Source of the DNA: Bacillota bacterium
GTDB lineage: Bacteria > Bacillota > Clostridia > Acetivibrionales > DTU013
Direction: 5' to 3'
DNA: 64,000 nucleotides
Assembly: GCA_023409735.1 (NCBI GenBank)
Contig: JAEYRB010000010.1
Location: forward strand, 153,404 to 217,403
This document shows, one piece after another, positions 3,308 through 21,983 of the stretch (within the stretch, counting starts at the first letter, position 1; each line of letters starts with the position of its first letter). Made by a program: the position numbers and the translations under genes. The notes beneath the pieces were generated by a model that was given only the letters and a program-made list of their open reading frames with translations, was not told the DNA's origin and searched no databases.

Positions 3308-3339
3308 AAATCAGCATCTTTTTAGATGCTGATTTTTTG
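3308..3339 (+). terminator. intrinsic terminator
   Basis: AAATCAGCATCT-tttt-AGATGCTGATTT followed by TTTTG. Confidence 0.8.
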
Positions 3340-3438
3340 TACTCTTTACATTGTTAATATTATCCATTTGAAGGGATTTATAAAATATTAATAGAATATT
3401 ATATAGGTTTTATTTACTAATTCCTCTGGAGGTATGAA

Positions 3439-4509
3439 ATGTACAAAAGAATTAGCGTTCTATTTGTTGTTTCTGCACTTTGTGTATTTTTATTTACTGC
3501 TTGCGGACAGGAGAAACAACAGCCTGTGGACTTGCAGGTATCCACAACTGAGACTGAACCGACTAAAACACCGGAAACATCGCCTGAACCATCTCCGGAA
3601 TCGACTCCGGAGCCTGCCTCTGCAATTGAGGATGGCTTTACTGTCCCTGAAGAGGGGGTCAGGCCTATAGCTGTAATGATTGATAACGAGGGTTCAAAGG
3701 TGCTGCCACAGGGAGGAATTGACAAGGCACAGATAGTTTATGAGGCTATTGTAGAGGGCGGCCTTACCAGATTGATGGCTGTATTTTGGGGAACTGATCC
3801 GGAACTGATAGGCCCGGTCAGAAGCTCAAGGCACTACTTCCTTGATTTCAGCATGGAATATGATGCCATGTATGCCCATGTAGGCTGGAGCACTTATGCA
3901 CAAAATGACATTACAAAGCTGAAAATAAACAACATCAACGGGTTATATCTGGGTACTGATGTATTCTGGGACCTCACTAATGATAGAAAGAACTGGCAGG
4001 ATACCTATACATCAATGGAAAAGCTGGAGGCGTATGCGGATAAGAAGTATAAAACTACTACTGATACAAAGTATCCGTTCACTTATAATCAGACAGAGGT
4101 TGTGCCGACATCAGGGCAAAATGCAAATTCTGTAACCTTTAAATATCCATCAATGACCTCCGAATATAAATATGACAGTGAAGCAGGGCTCTACAAGCGC
4201 TACAGATATGACAAGCCGCATATGGAAAGAGTAAGCGGGGAACAACTTACAGCTAAAAACATAATTGTAAGATATACAAACAGCTATACAATTAAGGGAG
4301 ACAAGTATGGCCGACAGGAAATGGATACGACAGGAAGCGGAGACGGCTACTACATAACAGGCGGCAAGGCAATAAAAATTAAGTGGAGTAAGGCATCAAG
4401 AGGTGCACAGACAAAATACACAGACGAAGCCGGAACCGCATTAACTTTGAATAGAGGGCAGACTTGGATTCAGGTAGTGCCTCTTTCTTCAAAGGTCACT
4501 ATAGAATAA
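3439..4509 (+). CDS. DUF3048-domain lipoprotein (YerB-like)
   Basis: Signal peptide with lipobox LFTAC, Pro/Thr/Glu-rich linker, then RPIAVMIDNEGSKVLPQGGIDKAQIVYEAIVEGGLTRLMAVFW typical of DUF3048. Confidence 0.8.
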   Translation: MYKRISVLFVVSALCVFLFTACGQEKQQPVDLQVSTTETEPTKTPETSPEPSPESTPEPASAIEDGFTVPEEGVRPIAVMIDNEGSKVLPQGGIDKAQIVYEAIVEGGLTRLMAVFWGTDPELIGPVRSSRHYFLDFSMEYDAMYAHVGWSTYAQNDITKLKINNINGLYLGTDVFWDLTNDRKNWQDTYTSMEKLEAYADKKYKTTTDTKYPFTYNQTEVVPTSGQNANSVTFKYPSMTSEYKYDSEAGLYKRYRYDKPHMERVSGEQLTAKNIIVRYTNSYTIKGDKYGRQEMDTTGSGDGYYITGGKAIKIKWSKASRGAQTKYTDEAGTALTLNRGQTWIQVVPLSSKVTIE

Positions 4510-4608
4510 TAAGATATTTTTCAATATCTTTAATAAAAAGTGTTAGTGAATAGAATAACTGGGTATAAATTAATTATGCTAATTAAGAAACGAAAGGGTG
4601 ACTGATTT

Positions 4609-5300: not shown

Positions 5301-7067
<1,767 letters not shown>

Positions 7068-7120
7068 TTATGTTTCTATTTTTCTTAAATTTATTGCCAA
7101 GCCCAAGGATCATGAATCAT

Positions 7121-7154
7121 CAAAAGACTTGCTTTATTTATTGTTCGGCAAGTC
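7121..7154 (-). terminator. probable terminator of the GOGAT-glnA-ANTAR operon
   Basis: On the minus strand GACTTGC-15 nt loop-GCAAGTC followed by TTTTG. Confidence 0.45.
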
Positions 7155-7222
7155 ATTCAAATACTTATAAGTTACAGATTTGCTTAAGTATCATCAATTG
7201 CACAACAAATCCATATTATACT

Positions 7223-7335
7223 CATAAGTATCTATAGCACTATGAATCTGTCATATGGATATAAGTTATCTACAGCACTATGATTCCATCATAAGCCATA
7301 AGTATCTATAGCATTATGAATCCGTCATATGTCAT
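7223..7335. repeat. ~37-39-bp degenerate tandem repeat x3 abutting the 3' end of the ANTAR gene
   Basis: CATAAGTATCTATAGCACTATGAATCTGTCATATGG / TATAAGTTATCTACAGCACTATGATTCCATCATAAGC / CATAAGTATCTATAGCATTATGAATCCGTCATATG. Confidence 0.8.
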
Positions 7336-7338
7336 AAT

Positions 7339-7926
7339 TCAGTTTTCATATGTTCTGATGATATTCTCTGCTATCTCTCGCTTTGTTAGCCGCATATCCA
7401 TAGCTTGTTTTTCAATGAATCTGTGTGCTTGATCCTCATTCATGTTCAGATACTTGATCAGCACCCATTTTGCCCTGTTCACTATGCGTATTTCATCCAT
7501 TTTTGCCATAAGTGTCTTGTTCTTTGCTTCGGCTGTTCTCAGTCTCCCGCGCATGGCAACAGCAAGCTTTACTGCGCTGTACATAATAGCTTTGCTTACG
7601 GGCTTTGCAACAGTAATTACCCCATAGTTCTCCACCTTATAGGAAACATCATTATACAGCTCACCTTTTACGAGGAGTATAACACCTGAAGGATTTGTAT
7701 GTACAACATCAAGGGCAAAATCAGCTCCGAATTCATCGCTGAGCGGCGCATTTATTATAACTATGTCATATTCTGCACAAACCAACTTACGCTTAGCTGA
7801 GCTGCAATCCTTAATGAGCTCAACTGGGCTGAAGGATGAGGGCGGCAGAAGCTCCAAAAGCTGCTCGAGTATTTTATTTGTACTTGATACTACAAGGACA
7901 CTGCTCATTGTTCTCTCGGCAAGCAT
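7339..7926 (-). CDS. ANTAR-domain RNA-binding regulator with an atypical (pseudo-)receiver domain
   Basis: C-terminal IVNRAKWVLIKYLNMNEDQAHRFIEKQAMDMRLTKREIAENII = ANTAR; N-terminal CheY-like fold with SS for the acidic pair and N (IVIINAPL) at the phospho-acceptor position. Confidence 0.85.
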   Translation of the reverse strand: MLAERTMSSVLVVSSTNKILEQLLELLPPSSFSPVELIKDCSSAKRKLVCAEYDIVIINAPLSDEFGADFALDVVHTNPSGVILLVKGELYNDVSYKVENYGVITVAKPVSKAIMYSAVKLAVAMRGRLRTAEAKNKTLMAKMDEIRIVNRAKWVLIKYLNMNEDQAHRFIEKQAMDMRLTKREIAENIIRTYEN

Positions 7927-7942
7927 AGTAACAGCCCCCCGA

Positions 7943-9160
7943 TCAAAGAGAAAGCATTACGTACGTATCGATAACGCGACGCGGCAAAATGCTTTGCACA
8001 AAGCTGCTTGTGCTCATCAGCCTTGAAGCTTCATCAAGACTCAATGGTAAAGTCTTTAAAGTATCAAGCATCACCTTGTCTGCCTTGAAAAGGTTCACAT
8101 CTGTAGATGGCGGAGGTGTTAGCTTATTTTTGATTCCGTCAAGTCCGGCATATAATATGGCGGTATATGCCAGATAGGGGTTAGCTGTGGCATCAGGAGA
8201 GCGAAGCTCGATTCTGGCATGCTGCCGGTCAGCCGCAGGAATACGTATCAGCTGTGAACGATTCTGAGGAGACCAGGTGATATATTTTGGTGCCTTGCAC
8301 TCTCCAAGCCTTTTGTAGGAAGCGTGAACGGGATTGAGGAGCATTGTTATATCTTGTATATGTTCAAGTATTCCTGCCATAAAAGCTTCAATGCAGTTTT
8401 CATTGTTGATGCTGTGGAGCGAAAGGTTTATATGCATTCCACTGCCGCTTTTACCTTCAAGGGGTTTTGGATCAAAGGAGGCGTGGAGCCCGTTTCGTGC
8501 AGCTATGGTTTTTACAACAGTTTTGAAGGTTATTGCGTTGTCTGCCGCAGACAGTATGTCGCTGTAGTGAAAATCTATTTCGTTCTGACCGGGACCTTCC
8601 TCATGGTGTGATGCCTCCGGCTTTATTCCCATATCTTCTAGAGTAAGGCATATTTCACGCCTTACGTTCTCACCTGCATCTTCAGGAGCAATATCCATAT
8701 ATCCGGCACTGTCAAACGGTATATTAGTGGGATGGCCGTTCTCATCATTTTTGAAAAGATAGAATTCAAATTCTGCTCCCACATAGCATATAATACCCAT
8801 TTCACTTGCAGCAGCTACTGCTTTTTTCAAAAGCATACGAGTATCAAGCTCAAAAGGTGTGCCGTCGGGATGCTTTATATCGCAGAACATACGAACAACG
8901 CGGCCCTGAGATGGACGCCATGGCAATAGCGACAGCGTTGACGGATCGGGAAACAGGAAAAGGTCTGATTTTACTTCATCTCCAAAACCTCTGACTGCAG
9001 AGGCATCGAAGGATATTCCGTGATCGAATGCACCATCTAGCTCGTCTGAAAGAATTGATATATTCTTTGGTACTCCGAAGATGTCGCAAAATGCAAGCTT
9101 TATAAACTTTACATCCTCTTCCTTAACATAATCCAGTACTTCTTTTTTTGTATAGTACAT
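7943..9160 (-). CDS. glnA: glutamine synthetase, type I, unusually short (405 aa)
   Basis: EFEFYLF, ASHHEEGPGQNEIDF, GSGMHINLS, NPVHASYKRL, WSPQNRSQLIRIP and IELRSPDATANPYLA motifs present; ends about 20 aa earlier than B. subtilis GlnA by my alignment. Confidence 0.9.
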   Translation of the reverse strand: MYYTKKEVLDYVKEEDVKFIKLAFCDIFGVPKNISILSDELDGAFDHGISFDASAVRGFGDEVKSDLFLFPDPSTLSLLPWRPSQGRVVRMFCDIKHPDGTPFELDTRMLLKKAVAAASEMGIICYVGAEFEFYLFKNDENGHPTNIPFDSAGYMDIAPEDAGENVRREICLTLEDMGIKPEASHHEEGPGQNEIDFHYSDILSAADNAITFKTVVKTIAARNGLHASFDPKPLEGKSGSGMHINLSLHSINNENCIEAFMAGILEHIQDITMLLNPVHASYKRLGECKAPKYITWSPQNRSQLIRIPAADRQHARIELRSPDATANPYLAYTAILYAGLDGIKNKLTPPPSTDVNLFKADKVMLDTLKTLPLSLDEASRLMSTSSFVQSILPRRVIDTYVMLSL

Positions 9161-9174
9161 CCGATTCCCTCCAA

Positions 9175-9894
9175 TCAGTTTTGAACATAGAGCTGCTTAT
9201 ATGGATTACTTGTGTTAGGTGTCAATGTATAAAAGTTTTTGTTAAAAATTTCATTTTTATCAGTATAAAACAATTCGGAAAATGTATCAATATATGCAGA
9301 AATTTCTTCCATATCGCATTGGCTTGATTGATTGACTGCTACCTGACGGGGAAACCTTGCAGAAAGCTTTTCTGCGCGTATGACTATTTTGCCGCCGTGC
9401 ATCCCTGTGCCGCAGAAATTACCAAGAATTTCTTCATCCTTAAAGCCTAGTCCTAAAACTATGATTAACCCTCCTGCCTGATATTCTCCAAGAAAGCTTC
9501 CGCATTTGCCGCCAATTACCATAACCGGTTTTTTATCTGCATATGCCTTCATATGGATGCCTGCACGATAGCCTACATCTCCCTTTATGAATATCTCGCC
9601 ACCCCTCATTGCATAGCCTGCTGCATCACCGCAGCTGCCATGGACAACGATTCTTCCTGAATTCATAGTATCGCCTGTGGCGTCCTGTGCGTTTCCGTTG
9701 ACAACTATTGTGGCACCATCCAGATATGCACCCAGGGCATTGCCGGGAACACCATTGATCATAAGCGTTCCACTGCTTCTGCCAGCCCCGATAAAACGCT
9801 GCCCAAGACAGCTGTTAATGGTGATTTCACCTTCGGTAGATACAATTTGTCTGTTTAAAAAATTGTATCCAATATTTTCACTGTTTAATATCAT
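9175..9894 (-). CDS. glutamate synthase GXGXG (GltB C-terminal beta-helix) domain protein
   Basis: Gly-rich repeats VVHGSCGDAAGYAMRGGEIFIKGDVGYRAGIHMK...VIGGKCGSFLGEYQAGG; start overlaps the stop of the upstream ORF. Confidence 0.8.
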   Translation of the reverse strand: MILNSENIGYNFLNRQIVSTEGEITINSCLGQRFIGAGRSSGTLMINGVPGNALGAYLDGATIVVNGNAQDATGDTMNSGRIVVHGSCGDAAGYAMRGGEIFIKGDVGYRAGIHMKAYADKKPVMVIGGKCGSFLGEYQAGGLIIVLGLGFKDEEILGNFCGTGMHGGKIVIRAEKLSARFPRQVAVNQSSQCDMEEISAYIDTFSELFYTDKNEIFNKNFYTLTPNTSNPYKQLYVQN

Positions 9895-11132
9895 GATTTT
9901 ACACCTCCCAGTTTTTCATCCCTGAATTTTCTTGAAAAAGCTGCCAGACCGGGCTGTTTGAAGATTAAGGCGCTATCTATGCTTGACAGCGGCGTACGTT
10001 CACGGATAAGTGAGGTGTATATTCCTGCCTTATTTACATCACCTATCATTATATACCCCTTTAGCAGATCGTTTTTGTAAAACAGCTTCTTAAGACTTTC
10101 TGAGCTGTGTTCTTCGTATTTTTCCCCGTCATAATTACCGGCAGTAATAATGTGCATTCCAAAAAAACCGATTGCATTCATGGGGATTGCTTTATTATAG
10201 ACCATGCTGCCACCGGCCATATTGATACCGGCCACATGGCCTCCGTAGTAAGCATTTGGAAGCAAAGCCAGGACACGATCAGTGTCTGAGGAAATATCAT
10301 GGCACTCAGTACAATCTCCTGCTGCAAAAATGTTTTCCAGGGTTGTTTCCATTTTGCTGTTTACGTTAATACCTTTATTTACTAAACCACCGGCGTCCTT
10401 AACAAGAGCTGTATTAGGGCGTACGCCCACTGCGGTGACCAATATGTCGAAGCTAAGTTCTTCTCCGCTTGTAAGGAGAGCGGCATTACCCCTGAACTCC
10501 TTAACGGAGGTGCCGAGCTTGAATTCTATACCATGTGTTTCAAGGTGTTTTTGGACCAGAGCTGCACCTTCACTGTCCAGTATGCTTGATAGAATTGATG
10601 GTGCAAGGTCAATTACTGTAACACTGTTTACCCGTTTAGTTATTCCTTCGGCGCATTTAAGGCCTATAAGCCCCCCGCCGATAATGAGAATCCTTTTGTC
10701 CTTACCAAGTACAGTATCCAGTGCGATTGCATTGTCAAGAGTCATAAAGCTGAAGTGGTTTGAAACTGTCTCCAAGCCCTTCATAGGAGGTACAAACGGA
10801 GAGGAGCCTGCTGCAACAAGAAGCTTATCATAAATCACGCTCTCTCCGCTTTCGAGAAGCACCTGACATGCTATTGTATCAATTTTCACAGCCTTTTTAC
10901 CAAACTGTGCTGTGCACTTATTATCAGAATAAAAGGAGTCCGGCCTGTATTTCATCCTTTGTTCGTCTGTTTTTCCCTGCAGCAAGTAAGAAATAAGCGG
11001 GCGCGAGTACATATGATATGGCTCATCGCTTATAATTGTGATACTGCCTTTATTGTCAATTTCACGGATTCCCTCGACACAGCCTGCAGCAGCAGTTGAA
11101 TTTCCTATTATAACATATCGCAATATACTCAC
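9891..11132 (-). CDS. FAD/NAD(P)-dependent pyridine nucleotide-disulfide oxidoreductase, probable electron-input subunit of the split GOGAT
   Basis: Two Rossmann motifs (VIIGNSTAAAG; ILIIGGGLIGLKCAE) and AAGDC; overlaps neighbouring ORFs by 4 nt on both sides. Confidence 0.8.
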   Translation of the reverse strand: MSILRYVIIGNSTAAAGCVEGIREIDNKGSITIISDEPYHMYSRPLISYLLQGKTDEQRMKYRPDSFYSDNKCTAQFGKKAVKIDTIACQVLLESGESVIYDKLLVAAGSSPFVPPMKGLETVSNHFSFMTLDNAIALDTVLGKDKRILIIGGGLIGLKCAEGITKRVNSVTVIDLAPSILSSILDSEGAALVQKHLETHGIEFKLGTSVKEFRGNAALLTSGEELSFDILVTAVGVRPNTALVKDAGGLVNKGINVNSKMETTLENIFAAGDCTECHDISSDTDRVLALLPNAYYGGHVAGINMAGGSMVYNKAIPMNAIGFFGMHIITAGNYDGEKYEEHSSESLKKLFYKNDLLKGYIMIGDVNKAGIYTSLIRERTPLSSIDSALIFKQPGLAAFSRKFRDEKLGGVKS

Positions 11133-11557
11133 CTCTCTTCATATACTATAGCTTGGTTTGGACATCCTTCAATACATTTAGGATTGCCTGAAGAATTTTC
11201 AATACAAAGCTCACATTTTTGCATAACTCCGTTATCGGCCGGCATAATTGCACCATATGGACAGGATAATATGCAAGTATAGCACTGTACACATTTATCC
11301 TTATTGATGCGCACAACCCCATTTTCTCTAGTTAGAGCGCCTGTTATGCAGTTCATCACACATAGTGGTTCATCACAATGACGGCAGGAAACTGCAAAGC
11401 ATATTTTCCCATCAGTCTCAACATGTATATTCGGTTGTATTTTTATATTTTTCAGTGCGGTAAACATATTATCCTTGCCTGAATTTGCAAATGCGCAGTA
11501 GTATTCGCATAAATGACAGCCAAGGCACCAATCTTCGTTAACATAAACTCGCTTCAT
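11129..11557 (-). CDS. 4Fe-4S dicluster ferredoxin-like protein
   Basis: CLGCHLCEYYC, CRHCDEPLCVMNC, CVQCYTCILSCP and CIEGCP motifs; GAGGTG 6 nt before ATG at 11557. Confidence 0.8.
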   Translation of the reverse strand: MKRVYVNEDWCLGCHLCEYYCAFANSGKDNMFTALKNIKIQPNIHVETDGKICFAVSCRHCDEPLCVMNCITGALTRENGVVRINKDKCVQCYTCILSCPYGAIMPADNGVMQKCELCIENSSGNPKCIEGCPNQAIVYEER

Positions 11558-11567
11558 AGAAAGCACC

Positions 11568-13073
11568 TCACTCCCCGGCATGTTTGATTCCAAGTATTTC
11601 GAGCTCCTTTATGCCAAGTCCTATACCGCGGAGCATCAAGCGGTTTCCTCTAAGAGCTTCTATGGAGTTAATGCCCATTGCGCCCATAAGCTCTTTAATT
11701 TCGTGATTCCATGCAGTAACAAGGTTAACAAGCCTATGATAGGCGATATCAGGATTTAATCTTTTGACAAGCTCTGGGCGCTGGGTCGCAATACCCCAGT
11801 TGCATTTTCCTGCCTGGCAGCTTCTGCACAGGTGACAGCCTATGGCGAGCAGAGCGGCAGTTGCTATATATACGGCGTCGGCTCCAAGTGCTATAGCCTT
11901 TACAACATCGGAGCTGCTGCGTATACTGCCACCGATTACAAGTGAGACATCGCCTCGGATACCTTCATCACGCAGCCTTTGATCTACGCTGGCAAGTGCA
12001 AGCTCCACAGGTATGCCTACATTATCTCTTATTCTTGTAGGAGCAGCTCCTGTGCCGCCTCTGAAGCCGTCTATAGCTATGATATCAGCGCCGCTTCTGG
12101 CTATGCCGCTTGCAATAGCAGCGATATTGTGAACAGCTGCTACCTTTACAATAACAGGCTTCTTATAGCTTGTGGCCTCTTTAAGGGAGTATACCAATTG
12201 TCTTAGATCCTCTATTGAATATATGTCATGATGAGGTGCAGGGGAGATGGCGTCCGAGCCCTCAGGTATCATTCTGGTCTTTGATATGTCGCCTACGATT
12301 TTTGAGCCGGGAAGGTGACCGCCTATGCCGGGTTTAGCACCCTGACCCATTTTTATCTCAATTGCTGCACCTGCTTCAAGATAGCCCTTATGAACTCCAA
12401 AACGTCCTGAGGCAACCTGCACTATTGTATTTGGCCCGTATTGATAGAAGTCCTCATGGAGTCCGCCCTCGCCAGTGTTATAGCAGGTACCGAGCTCACT
12501 TGCGGCAAGAGCAAGGCTTTTGTGGGCGTTATAGCTGATGGAGCCATAGGACATGGCAGAAAACATGATCGGCATTGGAAGCTCAAGCTGAGGGGACATT
12601 TTTGTTTTAATAGTCCCATCCTCGTTTCTTTCTATTTTATCGGGCTTTTTGCCAAGGAATACCTTTGTTTCCATGGGCTCTCGAAGCGGGTCTATAGGTG
12701 GATTTGTCACCTGTGATGCATTTATTAGTATTTTGTCCCAGTAAACAGGAAATTCCTTAGGGCAGCCCATTGAGGACAAAAGCACTCCTCCGCTGTCTGC
12801 CTGGCGGTATATCTCCTTTATAGACTGGTCGCTCCAGTTTGCATTTTCTCTGAAGCGGTGTTCTGAGGGCCTTATTTTAAGGGCCCTTGTGGGACACAAG
12901 GAAACACAGCGGTGACAGTTGACGCATTTTGCTTCGTCGCTGATCATAACACCAAGCTCTGAGTCAAAGCTGTGAACCTCATTTGCGCACTGCCTTTGGC
13001 AGACCTTGCATTGTATGCACCTGGAACTGTCCCGTACTACTTCGTAATCAGGATATATAAATTGTATCGGCAT
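11568..13073 (-). CDS. glutamate synthase FMN-binding domain protein (GltB domain-2-like) with N-terminal 2x[4Fe-4S]
   Basis: CIQCKVCQRQC, CVNCHRCVSLCP, then NTGEGG, GQGAKPGIGGHLPG, SPAPHHDIYSIEDL and DGFRGGTGAAP. Confidence 0.9.
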   Translation of the reverse strand: MPIQFIYPDYEVVRDSSRCIQCKVCQRQCANEVHSFDSELGVMISDEAKCVNCHRCVSLCPTRALKIRPSEHRFRENANWSDQSIKEIYRQADSGGVLLSSMGCPKEFPVYWDKILINASQVTNPPIDPLREPMETKVFLGKKPDKIERNEDGTIKTKMSPQLELPMPIMFSAMSYGSISYNAHKSLALAASELGTCYNTGEGGLHEDFYQYGPNTIVQVASGRFGVHKGYLEAGAAIEIKMGQGAKPGIGGHLPGSKIVGDISKTRMIPEGSDAISPAPHHDIYSIEDLRQLVYSLKEATSYKKPVIVKVAAVHNIAAIASGIARSGADIIAIDGFRGGTGAAPTRIRDNVGIPVELALASVDQRLRDEGIRGDVSLVIGGSIRSSSDVVKAIALGADAVYIATAALLAIGCHLCRSCQAGKCNWGIATQRPELVKRLNPDIAYHRLVNLVTAWNHEIKELMGAMGINSIEALRGNRLMLRGIGLGIKELEILGIKHAGE

Positions 13074-14167
13074 TATTTTGACCCCCTATCCAAAGTAACA
13101 ATTACAGGCTCTCCGCCCCTTGGATACCATATCCTTGAGGGGGACGGCTCCATCATTCTAATGGCGCATTCCTCACTGGCGAAGTAAACTATATCGCCCT
13201 TCTCAGCTGCCACCATCGACCTTAGCTTAAGCCTGTCATTGAGTGCCATAAGTCCACCCTCAAAGCCCAACAATATTGAGAAAGGTCCCGTAATGAGCAA
13301 GCTGCTGAAGGTGTTCCTAAGGAAGGTAAGACGCTCCTCTTCCTTTTTGCTCTTTGTTTCTATAGTGCTCCAGAAGGGAGCTGCTATAACGCTGGCAGCC
13401 TCTTCAAGAGTTAAGCCCTGTCGTCTGAGCAGGTAGTCGAATATATATGTAATTACCTCGGTATCTGTAAGCAGAGTACACTTATAACCAAACATCTCGA
13501 TATATCTCCTGTTTGCATCATAGGAGGATATCTCACCATTATGCACTATGGAATAATCCAGCATTGCAAAGGGATGCGCCCCGCCCCACCAGCCGGGAGT
13601 GTTGGTCGGATAGCGGCCATGAGCTGTCCAGCTGTAGCCTTCATATTCATCCAGACGGTAGAATTCGCCCACATCCTCGGGGAAGCCCACTGCTTTGAAT
13701 ACGCCCATGTTCTTGCCACTTGAAAACACATATGAGCCTTTGTATTCCTTGTTGATCCTCAGTACCGCTCTGGCCATGTACTCCTTTTCATCAAGCTGGC
13801 TGTCTTTAAGCTTGTTGTTGTTGGGAGCTACAAAATAGCGCCATATTAATGGCTCGTTAACTATTTTTGGCGATTTGCGTATTGGAATTTTTGAAAGATT
13901 AATAACCTCAAACATCTTATCGAGATATCTCTCACATTCATCTCTAGCTGCTATGCTGTCGTAAAATATATGGAGAGCATAGAAGTCCTTGTACTGCGGA
14001 TATATGCCATAGCCTGCAAAACCGCCGCCTAAACCATTGGACCTTTCATGCATAGTCGTCATGGACTTCACAATTGTTTCACCGCATATATTATTACCGC
14101 TTCTTGAGATTACACCTGCTATGGCGCAGCCTGACGGAATACGGATATCGCCTTCTCTTGGCAGCAT
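13073..14167 (-). CDS. class-II glutamine amidotransferase (GltB domain-1-like)
   Basis: PSGCAIAGV nucleophile context, HGRYPTNTPG, HNGEISSY; GAAGGGA 9 nt before ATG at 14167 (track ORF starts at TTG 14176). Confidence 0.85.
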   Translation of the reverse strand: MLPREGDIRIPSGCAIAGVISRSGNNICGETIVKSMTTMHERSNGLGGGFAGYGIYPQYKDFYALHIFYDSIAARDECERYLDKMFEVINLSKIPIRKSPKIVNEPLIWRYFVAPNNNKLKDSQLDEKEYMARAVLRINKEYKGSYVFSSGKNMGVFKAVGFPEDVGEFYRLDEYEGYSWTAHGRYPTNTPGWWGGAHPFAMLDYSIVHNGEISSYDANRRYIEMFGYKCTLLTDTEVITYIFDYLLRRQGLTLEEAASVIAAPFWSTIETKSKKEEERLTFLRNTFSSLLITGPFSILLGFEGGLMALNDRLKLRSMVAAEKGDIVYFASEECAIRMMEPSPSRIWYPRGGEPVIVTLDRGSK

Positions 14168-14186
14168 ATTCTTCAATCCCTTCTGT

Positions 14187-14239
14187 AAAAAATAAAAGCG
14201 CTCACAAAGAGATATGTGTATCTCTTAATGAACGCCTTT
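14187..14239 (-). promoter_or_regulatory. leader hairpin plus U-tract in the 5' UTR of the GOGAT-glnA operon (candidate attenuator)
   Basis: Minus-strand RNA: AAAG(G)CG..[AAGAGATA-caca-TATCTCTT]..CGCTTT then TATTTTTT, lying between the promoter and the RBS. Confidence 0.45.
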
Positions 14240-14250
14240 GTTCTTTTAAC

Positions 14251-14279
14251 AGTATATGCCTGTGCATATGATTTGTCAA
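14251..14279 (-). promoter_or_regulatory. sigma-A-type promoter of the GOGAT-glnA-ANTAR operon
   Basis: Minus strand TTGACA (14279-14274), 17-nt spacer, TATACT (14256-14251). Confidence 0.6.
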
Positions 14280-14403
14280 TAATAAATGAATGATTTAATA
14301 ACAAAACTTGCAGTAATGGCTTAAAAGAATGTTGAAATACAAACATTTGACTAACTAATAACAAGAATATGAAAGAAAATATTTAAAACTTGCATTTTTA
14401 CTA

Positions 14404-14432
14404 TTGACAATGCATAAACATGATAGTAGAAT
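14404..14432 (+). promoter_or_regulatory. sigma-A-type promoter of glnN-amt
   Basis: TTGACA 14404-14409, exactly 17 nt, TAGAAT 14427-14432. Confidence 0.65.
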
Positions 14433-14442
14433 GATTGCATTG

Positions 14443-14497
14443 AAACGGCAAAGACGCCGCAGGATTTAACTGTGGTGTCTTTGCCGTTTTTTGTTTT
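14443..14497 (+). terminator. intrinsic terminator inside the glnN 5' leader (attenuator)
   Basis: AAACGGCAAAGAC(GCCGCAG-gatttaa-CTGTGGT)GTCTTTGCCGTTT followed by TTTGTTTT, located between the promoter and the GGGGTGAG RBS of glnN. Confidence 0.8.
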
Positions 14498-14519
14498 AAT
14501 TTTTTGAAGGGGTGAGATT

Positions 14520-16616
14520 ATGAGTAATGTACCTGAAATGTTCGGATGTATGGTATTCAATGATGCAGCAATGAAACAGAGACTTCCAAAAGAAACATAC
14601 AAGGCGATGCAAAATGCCATAAAGAATGGCCAGCGCCTTAATATCGACATAGCAAATGTAGTAGCAAATGCAATGAAGGATTGGGCAGCCGAAAAGGGTG
14701 CAACACATTTTACGCATTGGTTTCAGCCAATGACCGGTATTACAGCGGAAAAGCATGATAGCTTTATAGCGCCGGTGGAAGGCGGTAAGGTTATAATGGA
14801 ATTTTCAGGAAAGGAGCTTGTACACGGCGAGCCCGATGCGTCGAGTTTCCCCTCAGGTGGACTCAGAGCTACATTTGAAGCCAGAGGCTACACTGCGTGG
14901 GATCCTACATCATACGCTTTTATAAAGGATAAGACACTGTGTATACCTACGGCCTTCTGCTCCTATGACGGAAAGGCGCTGGATAAGAAAACGCCGCTTC
15001 TCAGGTCGATGGAGGCCATTAACAGGCAGGCACTTCGTGTCCTTAAACTATTCGGGAATGAGGATGTGACTTCTGTTAACACCACGATAGGGCCTGAGCA
15101 GGAGTATTTCATTATCGACAAGGGTGTGTATGAAAGACGTAAGGACTTGATATTTGCAGGTCGCACACTTTTCGGAGCAAAACCGCCTAAAGGACAGGAG
15201 CTGGAGGACCACTATTTCGGAGCTATTAAGCCCAGAATATCAGCATTTATGCAGGAGCTTGACGAAGAGCTGTGGAGACTTGGTGTGCTTGCGAAAACGA
15301 AGCATAACGAAGTAGCCCCGGCACAGCACGAACTGGCGCCTATTTTTGAGACCGTAAACATAGCAACAGATCATAATCAATTAACTATGGAGACTATGAA
15401 AAAGGTAGCTCAGAAGCATGGAATGGTATGCCTGCTGCATGAAAAACCCTTTGCAGGTGTTAATGGAAGCGGTAAGCATAATAACTGGTCGATCAGCACA
15501 AATACCGGTGTGAATCTTCTTGAACCGGGTGATACACCCCATGAGAACGCGCAGTTCCTGTTGTTTTTATGCGCTGTTATTAAGGCTGTTGATGATTATC
15601 AGGATCTCCTGAGAATATCAGTTGCAACAGCGGGTAATGACCACAGGCTTGGTGCAAATGAAGCTCCTCCTGCAGTTGTATCAATATTTTTGGGAAGTGA
15701 GCTAAGTGAAATACTCGACTCTATCGAAAAGGGTACAGCCTATGATGTAAAGGAAAAGACGCAGTTGAAGGTTGGCGTCCATGTCCTTCCGCGATTCCCC
15801 AGAGATATGACAGACCGCAACAGAACCTCACCATTTGCCTTTACAGGCAACAAATTTGAATTCCGCATGCCCGGTTCATCTCTGTCTGTGGCGGGAGTTA
15901 ACGTAGTGCTTAATACAGCAGTTGCTGAGGAACTGAGACAATTTGCCGACAGACTTGAGGTTTCACAGAGTTTGAATGATGACCTGAATAAACTTATAAA
16001 GGATGTTGTAAGCCGGCATAAGCGGATATTGTTCAACGGAAACGGTTATGATGAGGAATGGATAAAGGAAGCAACTGAAAAACGTGGGCTTCTCAATCTT
16101 AAGACTACACCTGACTGTATGCCTTATTTCCTGCATGAAAAGAACATAGCGCTGTTTACTTCCCACAGAGTATTTTCAGAGGCAGAAATGAAGTCTCGGT
16201 ATGAAATACTCCTGGACAATTATTGTAAGACGATCAGAATAGAAGCTCTTACAATGCTTCAAATGTCAAAGCAGGATATCCTGCCGGCAATTTCGGCATA
16301 TGTTAAGGAGCTAAGCTTGACAGCTGCCGCTAAGAAGCAGTGCGTTACAACGGCGGATTGCACATTTGAAGAAAAAACCGTTGAGAAGTTATCCGGATTA
16401 TGCGCTGCAATTTATAGGAATATGAGCAGCCTTGATGCTATTATGCTTGATGTACAAAACAACAAGGATACTACGGATCAAGCTGTATTTATAAAGGATA
16501 ATGTAATACCTATGATGAATGAGCTGCGCGCTACAGTTGATGAGGCAGAAACACTATGTTCAGCGAATTGGTGGCCGATGCCCACATATGGAGAGCTATT
16601 GTTCAGCGTAAAATAG
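14520..16616 (+). CDS. glnN: glutamine synthetase, type III
   Basis: 698 aa; N-terminus [20 protein letters not shown] and core [31 protein letters not shown] and [14 protein letters not shown] match the GS-III class. Confidence 0.9.
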
Positions 16617-16727
16617 TCAGGTTAATTTTATAATTGTTTAATTAATGCGTTGCCTGAAGGGCTACGGCAAAAAGACGAGAGGGGCTCGAGGTACCCGAAA
16701 CTTTTATTATTCAAGGGAGGCGAATGT

Positions 16728-18455
16728 ATGGATAAATATCTAGAACTATTCTCTGATGTCAATACCATGTGGGTGTTAATAGCGTCAGCACTTGTATTCT
16801 TTATGCAGGCTGGGTTTGCTATGGTTGAAACCGGATTTACTCGTGCAAAAAATGCCGGAAACATTATAATGAAGAATATGATGGACTTCTGTATCGGGGC
16901 ACCGCTTTATTGGATCGTGGGCTTCGGTATAATGTTTGGCACACAAAGTGCAATATTTGGCGGAATCGATATTTTAACACAGGGCGACTATAGCGCAGTG
17001 TTGCCGGAGGGTGTCAGCTTTTTCAGCTATTTTATATTCCAGACGGTTTTTTGCGGAACAGCTGCAACAATAGTTTCAGGAGCAATGGCTGAGAGAACTA
17101 AATTCAGTGCCTACTGCATATATAGTGCTATGATCAGTCTTATAATATATCCTGTATCAGGTCACTGGATATGGGGCGGCGGCTGGCTGGCTCAGTTGGG
17201 CTTCCATGATTTTGCTGGTTCAACAGCGGTGCATCTTGTTGGTGGTATATGTGCGCTTGTAGGCGCTTCTATACTTGGACCTCGTATAGGCAAATATGAT
17301 AAAAATGGTAAACCTCAGGCAATTCCGGGACACAGCCTTACCTTGGGTGCACTTGGTGTATTTATACTATGGTTTTGCTGGTTTGGCTTCAATGGCGGTT
17401 CAACTGTATCAATGTCAAATGGCGGAGCTGAGCTGGCCGGAAAGGTTTTCTTCAACACGAATCTCGCAGCAGCAACCGCAACTGTAGCAGTTATGATAAT
17501 TACATGGATAAGATATAGAAAGCCCGACGTGTCAATGACTCTTAACGGTTCCTTGGCGGGACTAGTAGCAATTACAGCCGGATGTGACGTAGTAAACCCT
17601 TGGGCAGCAGCAGTCATAGGAATAATTGCAGGAACTGCAGTTGTATTCGGAATCGAATTTATTGATAAGGTAATGAAGATCGACGACCCAGTCGGAGCCG
17701 TGGGCGTACACTTTATGAATGGTGCACTTGGAACGATTCTTACAGGTGTATTCGCTTCAAATGAAGCTCTCGAAGACATGGGAATGAGCCGTCTGCACTT
17801 TCTTGGAGTTGAGGTTCTGGGCGTGCTTGTAACAACCTTGTGGGCGGGTGTAGCAATAAGTATAGTCTTCTTCATAATAAAGAAAACTGTTGGACTTCGT
17901 GCCGATGCCCAGGCAGAAATCGATGGACTTGATATTCATGAGCACGGCCTTGTGAATGCATACGCCGACTTCATGCCATCAATTCCTGCAGTGAATGTGG
18001 ATGTTGCACTGCCCGGTATACCTAAGGGCTCGATACCGGTTGATGAGGCAGTACCGGTTCAGCTTAAGACCTTCTCTGGAACGGTTACCGGCTCTGATGT
18101 AAAAATGAGCAAGGTAGAGATTATATTTAAGCAGGAGCGCTTTGAAGCTTTTAAGGAAGCAATGCTGGGAATAGGCATAACAGGAATGACTGTTACTCAT
18201 GTGCTTGGCTGCGGTGTACAGAAGGGAAAGCCGGAATATTACCGAGGTATTATTCAGCAGATAGAGCTTCTGCCCAAGGTTCAGGTTGAGATAGTCGTTT
18301 GCAAGGTGCCTGTGCGAACAGTAATTGAAACAGCTAAGAGAGTATTGTACACAGGACATATAGGTGATGGAAAAATATTTGTATATGATGTTGAAAATGT
18401 TGTAAAGGTTCGCACCGGTGAAGAAGGCTATGATGCTCTGCAGGATGTTGAATAA
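16728..18455 (+). CDS. amt: ammonium transporter (Amt) fused in frame to a C-terminal P-II (GlnB/GlnK) domain
   Basis: Amt core (FMQAGFAMVETG, DFAGSTAVHLVGG, GWFGFNGGS, GVHFMNGALG), ~50-aa linker, then MSKVEIIFK...GITGMTVTHVLGCGVQKG...IGDGKIFVYDVENVVKVRTGEEG from 18105; AGGGAGG before ATG 16728. Confidence 0.9.
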   Translation: MDKYLELFSDVNTMWVLIASALVFFMQAGFAMVETGFTRAKNAGNIIMKNMMDFCIGAPLYWIVGFGIMFGTQSAIFGGIDILTQGDYSAVLPEGVSFFSYFIFQTVFCGTAATIVSGAMAERTKFSAYCIYSAMISLIIYPVSGHWIWGGGWLAQLGFHDFAGSTAVHLVGGICALVGASILGPRIGKYDKNGKPQAIPGHSLTLGALGVFILWFCWFGFNGGSTVSMSNGGAELAGKVFFNTNLAAATATVAVMIITWIRYRKPDVSMTLNGSLAGLVAITAGCDVVNPWAAAVIGIIAGTAVVFGIEFIDKVMKIDDPVGAVGVHFMNGALGTILTGVFASNEALEDMGMSRLHFLGVEVLGVLVTTLWAGVAISIVFFIIKKTVGLRADAQAEIDGLDIHEHGLVNAYADFMPSIPAVNVDVALPGIPKGSIPVDEAVPVQLKTFSGTVTGSDVKMSKVEIIFKQERFEAFKEAMLGIGITGMTVTHVLGCGVQKGKPEYYRGIIQQIELLPKVQVEIVVCKVPVRTVIETAKRVLYTGHIGDGKIFVYDVENVVKVRTGEEGYDALQDVE

Positions 18456-18794
18456 GACATTAAAATGACTATGATACACTGCATGGATCGTCAGTACGGC
18501 ATGTCCCATTCATACAGGCAGCCTGCAGAAATGTAATGCATGTAAGATATAGCTTAAAGACATAAGCCTTATCCGCAAGCAGTGAGCAGGTATGTAATGT
18601 ACTCCATGTTAGAGTTAGCCATGTATTGTCTATTAATATGCAAGTGAATTATCTATCAATCAAAATTGAGTTGTTAGTAAAGCTGCGTTACTTACACCAC
18701 GAGCATTAGACAGTGGGTAATGCTTCACACATGTGTGCGGTAGCGAAATACTCATGATTCATTACTAGAAGTAACTGATATAGTAAATCAAGCC

Positions 18795-18839
18795 CCGGAG
18801 GTGTAGAATAAATGCCTCCGGCGGCAGCATTTTTGGAGG
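18795..18839 (+). promoter_or_regulatory. asnB leader hairpin with possible anti-Shine-Dalgarno alternative
   Basis: CCGGAGG (18795-18801), 13-nt loop, CCTCCGG (18815-18821), then CATTTTT and the SD GGAGG (18835-18839); CCTCC could pair with either GGAGG. Confidence 0.35.
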
Positions 18840-18848
18840 TAAATTGAT

Positions 18849-20429
18849 ATGTGTTGTATTATGGCTATAGACAGAAGCAATATTGGAATGGAAAGATTTA
18901 TACAATGCTTCAACCGTACTGTTTCCAGGGGACCTGACATGACAAGGGTGATCGAACTGGATAACGGGGGGATTATGGGCTTTCACCGTCTGGCTATTAT
19001 GGGCCTTGACGAAAGCGGAATGCAGCCGTTTACACTTAATAACAATTATATAGTATGTAATGGTGAAATGTACGGCTTTCGCAAAATGAAGCAACAGCTA
19101 TCTGAAAAATACTGCTTCGTGAGTAATTCGGACTGCGAAATACTGCTGCCAATGTATGAGAGCTATGGCTATGATATGTTCAGAAGGCTTGATGCGGAAT
19201 TTGCCATGATTATTTATGACAGCAGGAAAAAATCCTTTGTAGCGGCTAGAGATCCCATAGGTATAAGACCTTTATTTTATGGTGAAGGTCATGAGGGTGA
19301 GATGCTGTTCGCCTCTGAAGCTAAGAATCTGGTAGGCTTGACAGACAAGATAATGCCTTTTCCTCCGGGTTATTATTATGCAGAAGGTAAATTCACTTGC
19401 TACTGCAACATAGCTCAAAGGCAGGAGTATGTTACTAATGACTTGGAGACTGCATGCAGGAATATACATGATAAGCTGGTTAAAGGGATAGAAAAAAGAC
19501 TTGATGCTGATGCCCCTGTGGGCTTTCTTCTGAGTGGCGGCCTTGACAGCTCACTGGTATGCTCGGTGGCTGCAAAAATTCTAGGAAAGCCTATACGTAC
19601 CTTTGCCATAGGGATGAGCGGGGATGCGATAGACCTGAAATACGCTCGCCAGGTAGCTGAATACATAGGCAGCGAGCATAGAGAAATAATTATTGACAGA
19701 CATAAGGTGCTTACATCCATAGCCGAGGTCATAAGCGTGCTTGGCACTTACGATATTACAACCATAAGGGCAAGTATTGGCATGTACCTGATCTGTAAGG
19801 CAATACATGAAACCACAGATATACGCGTCCTGTTGACAGGCGAGATATCTGACGAAATATTCGGGTATAAATATACTGATTTTGCGCCTTCAGCTGAGGA
19901 ATTCCAGTTGGAAGCGGAAAAACGCCTTCGGGAGCTGCACATGTATGATGTACTAAGAGCTGACAGGTGTATCTCATCTAATTCTATTGAGGCAAGGGTA
20001 CCCTTCGGTGATTTGGATTTCGTAAAATATGTTATGAGCATTCCGGCTGAAATGAAGCTTAATACCTATGGTAAGGGCAAATATCTGCTCAGACATGCAT
20101 TTGAAGGAGACTATCTTCCGGATAACATACTCTACCGTGAAAAAGCTGCCTTCAGTGATGCGGTGGGCCACTCCATGGTAGATTATATAAAGGAATATGC
20201 AGAAGAATATTACAGTGATAATGAATATGAGGAGAAACGAATGAAGTATTCGTTCGCAACGCCATTTACAAAGGAATCACTGCTGTATAGGGAAGTGTTT
20301 GAAAAGTACTATCCAGCACAGGCGGAGATGGTCAAGGATTTCTGGATGCCTAACAAGACATGGGAAGGCTGCAATGTGGATGATCCCTCTGCAAGAGTGT
20401 TGAAGAATTACGGCGGCAGCGGCGAGTAA
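18849..20429 (+). CDS. asnB: asparagine synthase (glutamine-hydrolysing), AsnB type
   Basis: N-terminal MC nucleophile, FLLSGGLDSS PP-loop, typical AsnB C-terminal half. Confidence 0.9.
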   Translation: MCCIMAIDRSNIGMERFIQCFNRTVSRGPDMTRVIELDNGGIMGFHRLAIMGLDESGMQPFTLNNNYIVCNGEMYGFRKMKQQLSEKYCFVSNSDCEILLPMYESYGYDMFRRLDAEFAMIIYDSRKKSFVAARDPIGIRPLFYGEGHEGEMLFASEAKNLVGLTDKIMPFPPGYYYAEGKFTCYCNIAQRQEYVTNDLETACRNIHDKLVKGIEKRLDADAPVGFLLSGGLDSSLVCSVAAKILGKPIRTFAIGMSGDAIDLKYARQVAEYIGSEHREIIIDRHKVLTSIAEVISVLGTYDITTIRASIGMYLICKAIHETTDIRVLLTGEISDEIFGYKYTDFAPSAEEFQLEAEKRLRELHMYDVLRADRCISSNSIEARVPFGDLDFVKYVMSIPAEMKLNTYGKGKYLLRHAFEGDYLPDNILYREKAAFSDAVGHSMVDYIKEYAEEYYSDNEYEEKRMKYSFATPFTKESLLYREVFEKYYPAQAEMVKDFWMPNKTWEGCNVDDPSARVLKNYGGSGE

Positions 20430-20720
20430 CCTCGATGCTAAAGAATTACAACGGCAGTAGGGGCCTCTAGACTTCAGTGCCGAAGAATATAGAGGCAACA
20501 GGGGCATGTAGATCACGGTGCTGAAGGAATGCTGCGACCGAGTGGTCTATGCCCCCAACCCAATGCCGAAGAATTGCAGCGGGTAGCGGCGAGTAGACTT
20601 CAGTGCCGAAGAATTACGGCAGCAGCGGTGAGTAACCTCGATGCTAAAGAATTACAACGGCAGCGTCGAGTAACATGTGGCGAAGTAGCGCAGCTAGCCG
20701 CTGCAAATCAACTGGCCCCT
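20398..20720. repeat. ~40-bp degenerate tandem array (~8 units) starting inside the last codons of asnB
   Basis: TG(C/T)(C/T)GAAGAATTACGGCGGCAGCGGCGAGTAA-like units at ~20398, 20436, 20478, 20519, 20564, 20604, 20642 and 20678; several retain a TAA or TAG. Confidence 0.8.
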
Positions 20721-20769
20721 CAACGCAGCTAGCCGTTACTGCCAGTTCCTCAGCGTCGCAACAAAGCAG

Positions 20770-21696
20770 CTAAGCATTACCGCTGATCTCCTCAAGTGCT
20801 GTAATAAGCTTATACAATAGCTGATTGACAGGTGTTGCAACTCCATATTGTTGTCCCAGTTCTATTACCGTACCTGCAAATATATCAACCTCTGTTTTCC
20901 TGCCTGCTTCTACGTCTTGCAGCATAGAGGTCTTGCCCAGAGGAGAAATTGCTTCGAGAACAGCTGCATATTGCGCCAAATCGTCTTCTGACAGCCTTAC
21001 CCCTACTCTTTCCGCAATGGCGATGACCTCCCGTGATGCGGCGAACATGAGCTCACGAGCAGCGCCGGGTTTTGTAAATGGACCATAGGGTGCCCGCAAA
21101 ACTGCTGACACCTGGTTAATTCCTACATTCATCATAAATTTCCACCATTGCTCCCGGATTATATCCTCGGGTATGGTATAGGGAATATGCGCTTTATCAA
21201 AGAAGTCCCGAATAGCCTGTACCTTTAAAGAGGCTGCTGAATCCTCCCGGTCGCCAAATACGATTTTTCCAATTTTACTATACTGAATATTAGTCCCAGA
21301 CCGCACTGAATCTGTTGCTACTACAAAGGAATGGAGCATTTTATCCATGCCATATGTATTGCCGATTCGCTCCTCGCTGGAAATACCGTTTAAAAGTGAA
21401 AGTATTATAGTATCAGAACCGATAAGAGTCTTTATATCCGAAATGGCTTGCTCTAAATGGTGCTGCTTGACTGCAACAATAACTAGATCGGCAGTTTCTT
21501 TTATTGACCCCGGATACACATAATCAAAGGAGGTCAATTTCTCGTTAATTTTTATGCCTGACTCGGTATATCTTTTAGCACGCTGGCTATCCACTATTAC
21601 CTTAAGCTGACCGGGACAGTACTCCTGTATCCTTCCAGCATAAGCTCCGCCTACTGCTCCGAGTCCGATCAGATATACACGCTGTATTTGGCTCAT
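20770..21696 (-). CDS. panE: 2-dehydropantoate 2-reductase (ketopantoate reductase family)
   Basis: VYLIGLGAVGGAYAGRI Rossmann N-terminus, ~308 aa, ApbA/PanE-like C-terminal domain (KTSMLQDVEAGRKTEVD). Confidence 0.8.
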   Translation of the reverse strand: MSQIQRVYLIGLGAVGGAYAGRIQEYCPGQLKVIVDSQRAKRYTESGIKINEKLTSFDYVYPGSIKETADLVIVAVKQHHLEQAISDIKTLIGSDTIILSLLNGISSEERIGNTYGMDKMLHSFVVATDSVRSGTNIQYSKIGKIVFGDREDSAASLKVQAIRDFFDKAHIPYTIPEDIIREQWWKFMMNVGINQVSAVLRAPYGPFTKPGAARELMFAASREVIAIAERVGVRLSEDDLAQYAAVLEAISPLGKTSMLQDVEAGRKTEVDIFAGTVIELGQQYGVATPVNQLLYKLITALEEISGNA

Positions 21697-21983
21697 TGAT
21701 ATGATCCTCCTAAAATGCTTGCTGTAGTTTTATATTGAATATTTATTATAAAGTATTATGACATTTTTAGCTTTGAAATTCAATTGCTTATAAATCTGCA
21801 GGCGCGGCAATAGTTAATATAATAAGCCGAAGCCGCCAAATAAGTGAAAGAAGTATAACTGGCAGTAAAACTATATTTAATAGCAACAGTAAAATAAATG
21901 ATTTAATAACCGCAATGGGGGTTATTATAAGAGCATTCAAGCTGTCGTGCGATATTTTCGGTAATGCGAAACGCACATAACAG

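Follow-up and report, generated by a model that had tools for sequence, protein, structure and literature searches.

Probable ANTAR antitermination of a divergent ammonium-assimilation cluster in a clostridial genome

How might a bacterium control a cluster of nitrogen genes that encodes no DNA-binding regulator? The question is raised by positions 7339 to 20429 of a 64,000-nucleotide (nt) stretch of a clostridial genome (assembly GCA_023409735.1, contig JAEYRB010000010.1, 153,404-217,403 of the forward strand; hereafter the window). There, two sets of nitrogen-assimilation genes stand back to back. The minus-strand arm encodes a glutamate synthase (GOGAT) in five genes, a glutamine synthetase (GS) and an RNA-binding ANTAR protein, and the plus-strand arm a type III GS (GS-III), an ammonium transporter fused to a P-II protein (Amt-PII) and an asparagine synthase. 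Between 7339 and 20429 the list of open reading frames (ORFs) holds neither a DNA-binding regulator nor a kinase, just as an earlier note on this DNA, made by inspection of the sequence, had claimed. I will argue that the region is quite probably an ANTAR antitermination regulon for ammonium assimilation, of the type known from the clostridial protein NitR.

The argument begins with the 343-bp spacer between the arms, which holds the two best promoter matches of the 15 kb scanned for promoters and terminators (6800-21800). Each promoter is followed by a short leader:

14251-14279, minus strand: sigma-70 promoter of the minus arm, TTGACA-17-TATACT, 11 of 12 matches, kept in the closest related locus (L151)
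14187-14246, minus strand: leader of the minus arm, with a hexaloop hairpin GAAC-AAAGGC-GUUC (14243-14230) nested in the 5' arm of a terminator that ends UUUUAUUUUUU
14404-14432, plus strand: sigma-70 promoter of the plus arm, TTGACA-17-TAGAAT, 11 of 12 matches, kept in L151
14443-14499, plus strand: leader of the plus arm, with a hexaloop hairpin CGGC-AAAGAC-GCCG (14446-14459) that makes up the 5' arm of a terminator of 20 bp with a U-tract after it

In both arms the hairpin starts 7-13 nt past the -10 box. Each leader folds alone into its terminator, with a minimum free energy (MFE) of -27.4 kcal/mol (z -8.4) for the minus arm and -38.4 kcal/mol (z -8.6) for the plus arm. At the MFE the 3' arm of the terminator takes up the hairpin's loop and 3' half as its pairing partners, so that hairpin and intrinsic terminator are mutually exclusive. 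The two hairpins share the consensus C-AAAGRC-G, a C-G pair closing the loop. ANTAR targets are marked by just such a loop of six, with A in first and G in fourth place, in competition with a terminator (PMC3369931, PMC8934654). Because both divergent leaders carry this signature in a form exclusive with the terminator, ANTAR control of both arms is plausible, and both leaders are predicted to be antitermination switches of the ANTAR type.

That the protein binds here, which ANTAR protein it is, and to what signal it responds are parts of a model, which would run as follows. Each of the two back-to-back sigma-70 promoters would start one transcript, whose first ~20 nt would form the hexaloop hairpin (A1, G4, closing C-G), its loop and 3' half doubling as the 5' arm of a strong intrinsic terminator. 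Without protein the RNA would fold into the terminator, and transcription would end before the first gene. An active ANTAR dimer on the hairpin would block the terminator, and the resulting read-through would open the seven-gene operon for GOGAT, GS paralog and ANTAR protein in one direction, or the GS-III/Amt-PII unit in the other.

Does the likeness of these hairpins to ANTAR targets extend to other genomes? The family to which the ANTAR protein of the cluster belongs is large, with 1961 database proteins at E<=1e-10. For comparison, one genome was taken per species, which gave 80 loci from Oscillospiraceae, Ruminococcaceae, Lachnospiraceae, Sedimentibacter, Romboutsia, Defluviitalea, Christensenella and other Clostridia. 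The proteins of the window were mapped onto these loci, whose flanks reach 10 kb. A hairpin plus T-tract no more than 350 nt upstream, counted without selection for hairpins, precedes 37 of 45 GS-III genes and 17 of 20 genes for the glutamine amidotransferase (GATase) subunit of GOGAT in related loci. The stems vary by lineage with pairing kept (CGGC/GCCG, CGAC/GUCG, CAGC/GCUG, AGAC/GUCU, GAAC/GUUC). When 61 instances are aligned, 95.7% of cells pair, as against 71.4% in shuffles, and four of the five pairs have changed on both sides, but these instances were selected for the hairpin and the unselected upstream counts are the fairer measure. In L151, the closest locus (ANTAR protein 82% identical), the promoters and both leader hairpins are nearly identical to those of the window, and the sequence that separates the two has diverged. 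Observed, then, are the genes, with the promoters, hairpins and terminators, and how far these are conserved.

The same comparison bears on the idea that the terminators obey a factor that is no ANTAR protein (for example a riboswitch for a small molecule, a leader peptide or another RNA-binding protein), the hexaloop likeness being coincidental. There is one hairpin here where the canonical target has two, and one genome (G019, 96% complete, in 180 contigs) has the motif and no ANTAR match. Nonetheless, the leaders are only ~60 nt long and contain no conserved structure the size of an aptamer, and Rfam, searched at gathering thresholds over the whole window and at E<=5 over 6800-21000, finds none of its families in the leaders or ahead of the asparagine synthase gene asnB. 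The conserved positions are exactly those of the ANTAR signature (A1, G4, a loop of six). Of 21 genomes in which the motif precedes GS-III, 20 have one or more ANTAR genes, and in dozens of genomes the switch and the ANTAR gene lie together. I consider control by a different kind of factor very improbable.

Are the switches confined to the cluster? A covariance model built from the hairpin (R1) was searched over the whole 3.76-Mb assembly of the genome under study (labelled G000) and gave 11 matches at E<=10. Four of the top six are intergenic leaders of nitrogen genes, each with a terminator after it and a nitrogen gene next: the two arms, a canonical glnA on contig C53, and a second asparagine synthase. 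The minus leader scores best in the genome (26 bits); the plus leader scores 21.5 bits and the third switch 19.7 bits. Six of the other seven matches lie within coding regions, and the last (C18:127126-127153) has no gene close downstream. A looser regular-expression scan of the genome for hairpin plus terminator had given 99 matches, mostly noise, and was superseded by the covariance model. The features outside the cluster are:

44336-44363, minus strand: third hexaloop/terminator switch, AAAGC-AAAGGC-GCUUU then a U-run (R1 19.7 bits; sequence and terminator fold checked)
42387-44234, minus strand: second asparagine synthase, glutamine-dependent, 615 amino acids (aa), downstream of the third switch and 24 kb from the cluster (Asn_synthase 288 bits, plus GATase_7)
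Contig C53, 5.3 kb (L091 3084-3111): switch before the canonical glnA, GGAAC-AACGGC-GUUCU plus terminator
Contig C53 (L091), ORF 3179-4513: canonical GS of type I (GS-I), glnA, 444 aa (Gln-synt_C 468 bits)

The loops of the four leaders (AAAGAC, AAAGGC, AAAGGC and AACGGC) all have A1 and G4, as is conserved across relatives, and the z-scores over the four are -8.6, -8.4, -3.8 and -4.1. The predicted regulon extends beyond the cluster, the same switch on glnA and on the second asparagine synthase bringing it to four transcription units.

What, then, is the protein that would act on these leaders? The candidate within the cluster is the product of the last gene of the minus arm:

7339-7926, minus strand: ANTAR protein with a pseudo-receiver, 195 aa (P0001; Pfam ANTAR 58.8 bits)

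Its ANTAR domain (residues 139-190) scores well above the Pfam cut-off of 27.3 bits, and a search of PDB sequences finds Rv1626 (1s8n, E 2e-10) and EutV. In the AlphaFold2 model (pLDDT 90.5) a helix at 112-160 is followed by two further helices, giving the fold of sensor domain, coiled coil and ANTAR bundle. The top Foldseek matches of the model are Rv1626, EutV (TM score 0.73 to the RNA-bound form) and AmiR (1qo0). The receiver does not appear phosphorylatable: the residue at the phospho-acceptor site is Asn59, and the acidic pair has given way to 'VSST'. N59 and the PLxDExG motif that follows it are nearly invariant in the family. By these residues P0001 is a predicted pseudo-receiver like AmiR. 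No kinase is found near it, either in the ORF list or among the flanking genes. With neither a phospho-acceptor Asp nor a partner kinase, it must be switched in some other way, by a ligand or by a partner protein. With regard to RNA, the invariant His168 aligns with EutV Tyr164, which stacks on G4, and R151 and K153 fall in a 'KAK' stretch (assuming a numbering offset of 2); His168 might stack on G4 of the hexaloop.

The earlier note had called the ANTAR protein the only encoded regulator. That holds for the cluster alone and not for the whole circuit, because the genome has a second ANTAR gene, and orthologs of that one are the sole ANTAR genes of two relatives (G006 and G017):

Contig C23 (L090 5855-6442), minus strand: second ANTAR paralog P0121, 195 aa, with Asp kept at the phospho-acceptor position

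P0121 is only 30% identical to P0001, over the C-terminal half. It lies in a conserved order of genes (AsnC-type regulator, class I/II aminotransferase, ANTAR, prfA), and no hexaloop switch was found near its operon. A census by Pfam ANTAR search across 40 relatives found at least one ANTAR gene in 33. Some relatives had appeared to be ANTAR-negative in a protein search at E<=1e-20, an artefact of the threshold, since the Pfam search finds an ANTAR gene of another subfamily in 34 of 41 genomes. The subfamilies are three: the P0001 type, found with a variant GS; a classical type, which adjoins canonical glnA (11 genomes); and the P0121 type, found unpaired.

Of the relatives that have the GOGAT cluster, the closest are G006 and G017 (GS-III 71-72% identical, GATase 79%), and the one ANTAR protein of each is a P0121 ortholog (51-55% identical) in the same genomic context. 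G006 (L166, G006:C10:17000-29600) has the arrangement of the window, GS-III divergent from GATase-FMN-Fer4-flavoprotein-GXGXG and then pyrG, with both hexaloop/terminator leaders and without the GS-ANTAR pair, the distance from GXGXG to pyrG being only 117 nt. In G017, GS-III and the GATase gene share a contig and a hexaloop is seen before GS-III; this genome, too, lacks the paired GS and the P0001-type ANTAR protein. Because the arrangement in G006 is identical except for the missing pair, the GS-ANTAR pair looks like a module that can be inserted or deleted. From these two genomes one may build the case that P0121 mainly controls the leaders, with the GS-ANTAR pair a later-acquired module, accessory or redundant, that adds a second signal input; the Asp that P0121 retains at the phospho-acceptor position fits the idea. 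However, four genomes (G008, G027, G029 and G033) in which the P0001 type is the sole ANTAR protein still have the hexaloop before GS-III, so the P0001 type evidently can serve alone, and the P0001-type gene lies inside a hexaloop-controlled operon in 73 of 76 loci. I judge it unlikely, if by no means negligible, that P0121 has the main control. The proposal is in any event compatible with a NitR-type regulon. Either subfamily appears, from its distribution, able to serve the switch, and both are present in the genome under study.

If P0001 needs a partner, which protein might that be? The gene just before it offers a candidate:

7943-9160, minus strand: short GS-I paralog, 405 aa (Gln-synt_N and Gln-synt_C), 16 nt upstream of the ANTAR gene

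The description of this gene in the earlier note as a type-I GS is right as to its domains, but the protein is an atypical short paralog. It scores 377.1 bits, below the 429.15 bits set by TIGR00653 for GlnA equivalogs, and its Gln-synt_C score is 320 bits, as compared with 468 bits for the canonical 444-aa GS-I. (The genome has three GS genes: GS-III, the short GS-I and the canonical one.) Relative to canonical GS-I, the short GS has a 12-aa deletion after GSGMHINLS and lacks ~25 C-terminal residues. By alignment, its flap is one residue shorter ('VPGYEAP' has become '-GECKAP'), with Lys in place of the flap Glu (E327 in Salmonella, E304 in B. subtilis), a substitution conserved in the short clade, and 'DGSS' has become 'DASA', with Ala replacing Ser53. 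The motifs for metal, ATP and glutamate (ExE, HHE..E, GxGxH, NRS..R, ELR) have all been retained, with conservation of at least 90% across the short clade; the roles of their residues are those generally ascribed to them in GS structures. Beside ANTAR genes of the P0001 type, the GS occurs in the short form (397-416 aa, ~50 loci) and in a near-canonical form (429-449 aa, ~20 loci).

Because the pairing is near-universal, the ammonium site altered, and a normal glnA present elsewhere in the genome, a sensor role for the short GS is plausible. In the model the co-translated paralog would be the most likely partner of the ANTAR protein and would sense glutamine, by analogy to AmiC with AmiR or GS with TnrA. 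Deletion of the homologous glnA (Clo1313_2031) in C. thermocellum is reported to deregulate nitrogen metabolism (Rydzak 2017). One may go further and suppose that the short GS is not primarily an enzyme but a sensor of glutamine (or 2-oxoglutarate) that sequesters and releases the antiterminator, as AmiC does AmiR and GS does TnrA but acting on RNA, while the ancestral paralog P0121 reads the same single-hexaloop leaders, so that two signals would converge on one RNA element. I regard this extension as speculative and rather doubtful. An alternative partner for the ANTAR protein is the membrane-tethered P-II of the Amt fusion, the only strong P-II match in the genome (83.5 bits). The only other P-II-like sequence is a weak match (39 bits) within a 231-aa frame at C28:75201-75485, minus strand.

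The remaining genes of the cluster bear on whether each arm is a unit and whether the two belong together. Functions were assigned by Pfam and NCBIfam profile scans on the ORF map. All ten ORFs have the nitrogen functions that the earlier note gave them, and the route it drew from ammonium uptake to glutamine, glutamate and asparagine stands. The minus arm consists of seven genes, running from 14176 down to 7339, the first five of which are:

13073-14176, minus strand: class-II (Ntn) GATase subunit (GATase_2)
11568-13073, minus strand: Glu_synthase subunit (471 bits) binding flavin mononucleotide (FMN), with an N-terminal 2x[4Fe-4S] ferredoxin module
11129-11593, minus strand: 4Fe-4S dicluster ferredoxin subunit (Fer4_11 and related models)
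9891-11132, minus strand: pyridine-nucleotide-disulfide oxidoreductase using flavin adenine dinucleotide and NAD(P)H (Pyr_redox_2 189 bits, plus Rubredoxin_C)
9175-9894, minus strand: GXGXG subunit, equivalent to the C-terminal domain of GltB (GXGXG 97 bits), with a 4-nt overlap with the preceding gene

Because neighbouring genes overlap or are no more than 16 nt apart, the arm may be read as one tight operon. The true start of the GATase is likely the ATG at 14167, which is preceded by a GAAGGGA ribosome-binding site; the ortholog in L151 has 364 aa. The three domains of GltB (Ntn-GATase, FMN and GXGXG) are encoded by separate, coupled genes with overlaps of 1-26 nt, as in split glutamate synthases of the archaeal/clostridial type. 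The Pyr_redox_2 flavoprotein is likely the electron-input subunit, replacing the flavin domain of GltD, and the dicluster subunit resembles the Fe-S N-termini of YgfT and AegA (NCBIfam). From the flavoprotein and ferredoxin subunits I infer the probable electron donor of the GOGAT.

The cluster is flanked by pyrG and panE. Between the stop codon of the ANTAR gene and pyrG (7223-7331) are three direct copies of a ~36-nt unit (CATAAGTATCTATAGCACTATGAATCTGTCATATG), 71-94% identical to each other and spaced by 38 and 36 nt. A hexaloop switch precedes pyrG in 11 of 45 relatives; in the window the repeats stand in that place instead.

The plus arm comprises:

14520-16616, plus strand: GS-III, 698 aa (GSIII_N 274.5 bits, Gln-synt_C 72.7, Gln-synt_C-ter 140.6)
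16650-18455, plus strand: Amt-PII fusion in a single ORF, 601 aa from a TTG start (start codon uncertain), with Amt at residues 40-435 and P-II at 486-591
18456-18848, plus strand: spacer of 393 nt before asnB, ending in a GC-rich hairpin (CCGGAGG...CCUCCGG) just ahead of the ribosome-binding site
18849-20429, plus strand: asnB, glutamine-hydrolysing asparagine synthase B (NF006949 611 bits, against a cut-off of 499)

The first protein, with GSIII_N, catalytic and C-terminal domains in ~700 aa, belongs to GS-III. The Amt-PII ORF, 33 nt beyond, scores over the TIGR00836 cut-off, and Amt is fused to P-II in all 11 complete orthologs from related loci. The place of asnB is less clear. In relatives it follows GS-III or P-II by 17-90 nt or is preceded by a T-box (three loci: L014, L016 and L026). 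A T-box was considered for the window as well and is absent from the spacer. Because no switch was found before asnB, its membership in the plus-arm operon is unproven.

Elsewhere in the window, Rfam recognizes a lysine riboswitch (34357-34529, minus strand, 79.5 bits), a tRNA gene (45582-45654, minus strand) and, at threshold, an L21 ribosomal leader (56025-56104, plus strand, 36.5 bits).

Could the two arms be mere neighbours, brought together by shared metabolism or horizontal transfer and not co-regulated? The 393-nt spacer of asnB, devoid of a switch, would suit that idea, and so would the fluid content of the arm: L151 has the same layout as the window without Amt-PII between GS-III and asnB. 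On the other hand, in both arms a near-consensus promoter leads directly into the same switch, and the divergent pairing with GS-III, upstream on the opposite strand, is kept in 39 of 49 loci. That the arms are independent seems to me highly unlikely.

Conservation of the gene order goes further. In 73 of 76 evaluable loci the gene just before the ANTAR gene is a GS gene, which agrees with the statement in the earlier note that such an arrangement is known in Clostridia, as it is from the NitR cluster. A pyrG gene is found within 500 nt downstream in 37 of 70, the five-gene GOGAT cluster in 10 of 49 and a three-gene form in 5 of 49. Within the 10-kb flanks, five loci (L042, L054, L061, L080 and L084) show the full order of Amt and GS-III in one direction and GOGAT, GS and ANTAR in the other. 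The cluster is more than chance, because its gene order is kept in dozens of genomes. By the same token, the divergent layout with GS-III and Amt-PII, which the earlier note had singled out for attention, is widespread in Clostridia by the synteny comparison and matches Clo1313_2030-2038 of C. thermocellum (PMC4676874, PMC9888227). It is a common and already known layout, and the locus is a good new example of it, not a new system.

Several facts weigh against the proposed regulon. The leaders of G006 and G017 persist without the ANTAR protein of the cluster type, and P0001 is therefore not strictly required for the switch. The spacer before asnB yields no ANTAR-type element in the genome search with R1 and no Rfam match at E<=5. 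The step that makes the GS a sensor rests on adjacency (73 of 76 loci), the altered flap residue and the reported phenotype of the C. thermocellum glnA deletion. Finally, the targets for which antitermination is proven have two hexaloops, and the leaders here have only one. When 45 nt on either side were searched for another AnnGnn hexaloop, 10 of 68 cases had one upstream and 10 of 68 downstream, about as often as by chance (12.6%), and the -10 box, 7-13 nt before the hairpin, leaves no room for one upstream. The literature on this last matter points both ways. One hexaloop is the minimal motif that an ANTAR dimer contacts, and how broadly single hexaloops are used has been raised as a question, yet two hexaloops were proposed to be needed during transcription (Walshe 2022, PMC8934654). 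The leaders described here are, by prediction, natural single-hexaloop attenuators, and if they work as such, antitermination with one hexaloop would contradict the view that active transcription needs two.

The locus accordingly bears on three matters: the sufficiency of a single hexaloop, the signal read by a pseudo-receiver ANTAR protein, and the paired GS as a sensor. With four leaders, two ANTAR paralogs and three types of GS in one genome, it offers a compact regulon for testing. More broadly, many Clostridia of gut and rumen, and many cellulolytic ones, have no NtrBC and appear to control nitrogen mainly by ANTAR antitermination (GlnR/TnrA were not searched for here).

How does the system compare with the closest of those already known? 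Close in its genes is that of C. (Acetivibrio) thermocellum DSM 1313, whose gogat cluster, Clo1313_2032-2036, includes a class-II GATase, a ferredoxin-type glutamate synthase and a 4Fe-4S protein. Its GOGAT genes have been deleted, with a nitrogen phenotype (PMC4676874, PMC9888227, PMC5887222), and Clo1313_2030-2036 are co-expressed (PMC4676874). The gene order of Clo1313_2036-2030 is that of the minus arm, including the type-I-alpha GS followed by the receiver-ANTAR protein. A GS-III gene is next door (Clo1313_2038), and the genome has an AmtB-PII fusion (loci listed: Clo1313_2030-2036, Clo1313_2038, Clo1313_2260). The differences are that Amt-PII lies elsewhere in that genome and here in the plus arm, that asnB is not reported in the C. 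thermocellum cluster, and that a leader RNA switch is not described in the three papers cited (PMC4676874, PMC9888227, PMC5887222). Metabolic engineering aimed at ethanol yield already makes use of this homologous cluster as a target.

Close in its regulator is NitR of C. saccharobutylicum NCP262, an ANTAR protein encoded after glnA that induces GS and GOGAT genes by antitermination under nitrogen limitation, to go by the account of Stutz 2007 given in PMC6316151. As in that glnA-nitR-gltAB cluster, the ANTAR gene here directly follows the GS gene (by 16 nt), and GS and GOGAT genes are grouped. In contrast, GOGAT is here of the five-gene split type instead of gltA/gltB, the adjacent GS is a shortened paralog, and there is a divergent arm of GS-III, Amt-PII and asnB. 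A layer of antisense RNA reported for NCP262 was not looked for here.

EutV of Enterococcus faecalis shares with P0001 the receiver fold, the long helix and the ANTAR bundle (TM score 0.73), and the eut leaders share the A1/G4 hexaloop that competes with an intrinsic terminator (PMC3369931, PMC8934654). EutV, however, is a phosphorylated response regulator with a kinase, EutW, and acts through two hexaloops (P1 and P2) on ethanolamine genes (PMC3369931, PMC8934654), whereas the protein here has no acceptor Asp and no kinase nearby, and its presumed targets have one hexaloop at the 5' end of the RNA and lead to nitrogen-assimilation genes. AmiR of Pseudomonas aeruginosa is like P0001 in its fold (1qo0) and its unphosphorylatable pseudo-receiver, and is controlled through sequestration by a ligand-binding partner, AmiC. 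No protein with the periplasmic-binding fold of AmiC is encoded here, and the GS paralog is no more than a candidate for the partner. In that respect the possible likeness is to B. subtilis, where GS reports glutamine status to TnrA and GlnR by protein contact, although those regulators are DNA-binding proteins of the MerR type, unlike the ANTAR protein here. No interaction of that type is known for any ANTAR protein, and the likeness is one of analogy only. Finally, ANTAR RNA elements have been predicted before P-II, amt, GS and GOGAT genes in Desulfotomaculum reducens and D. acetoxidans (Ramesh 2012, PMC3369931); those were found with a dual-hairpin model, whereas the element conserved here is a single hairpin.

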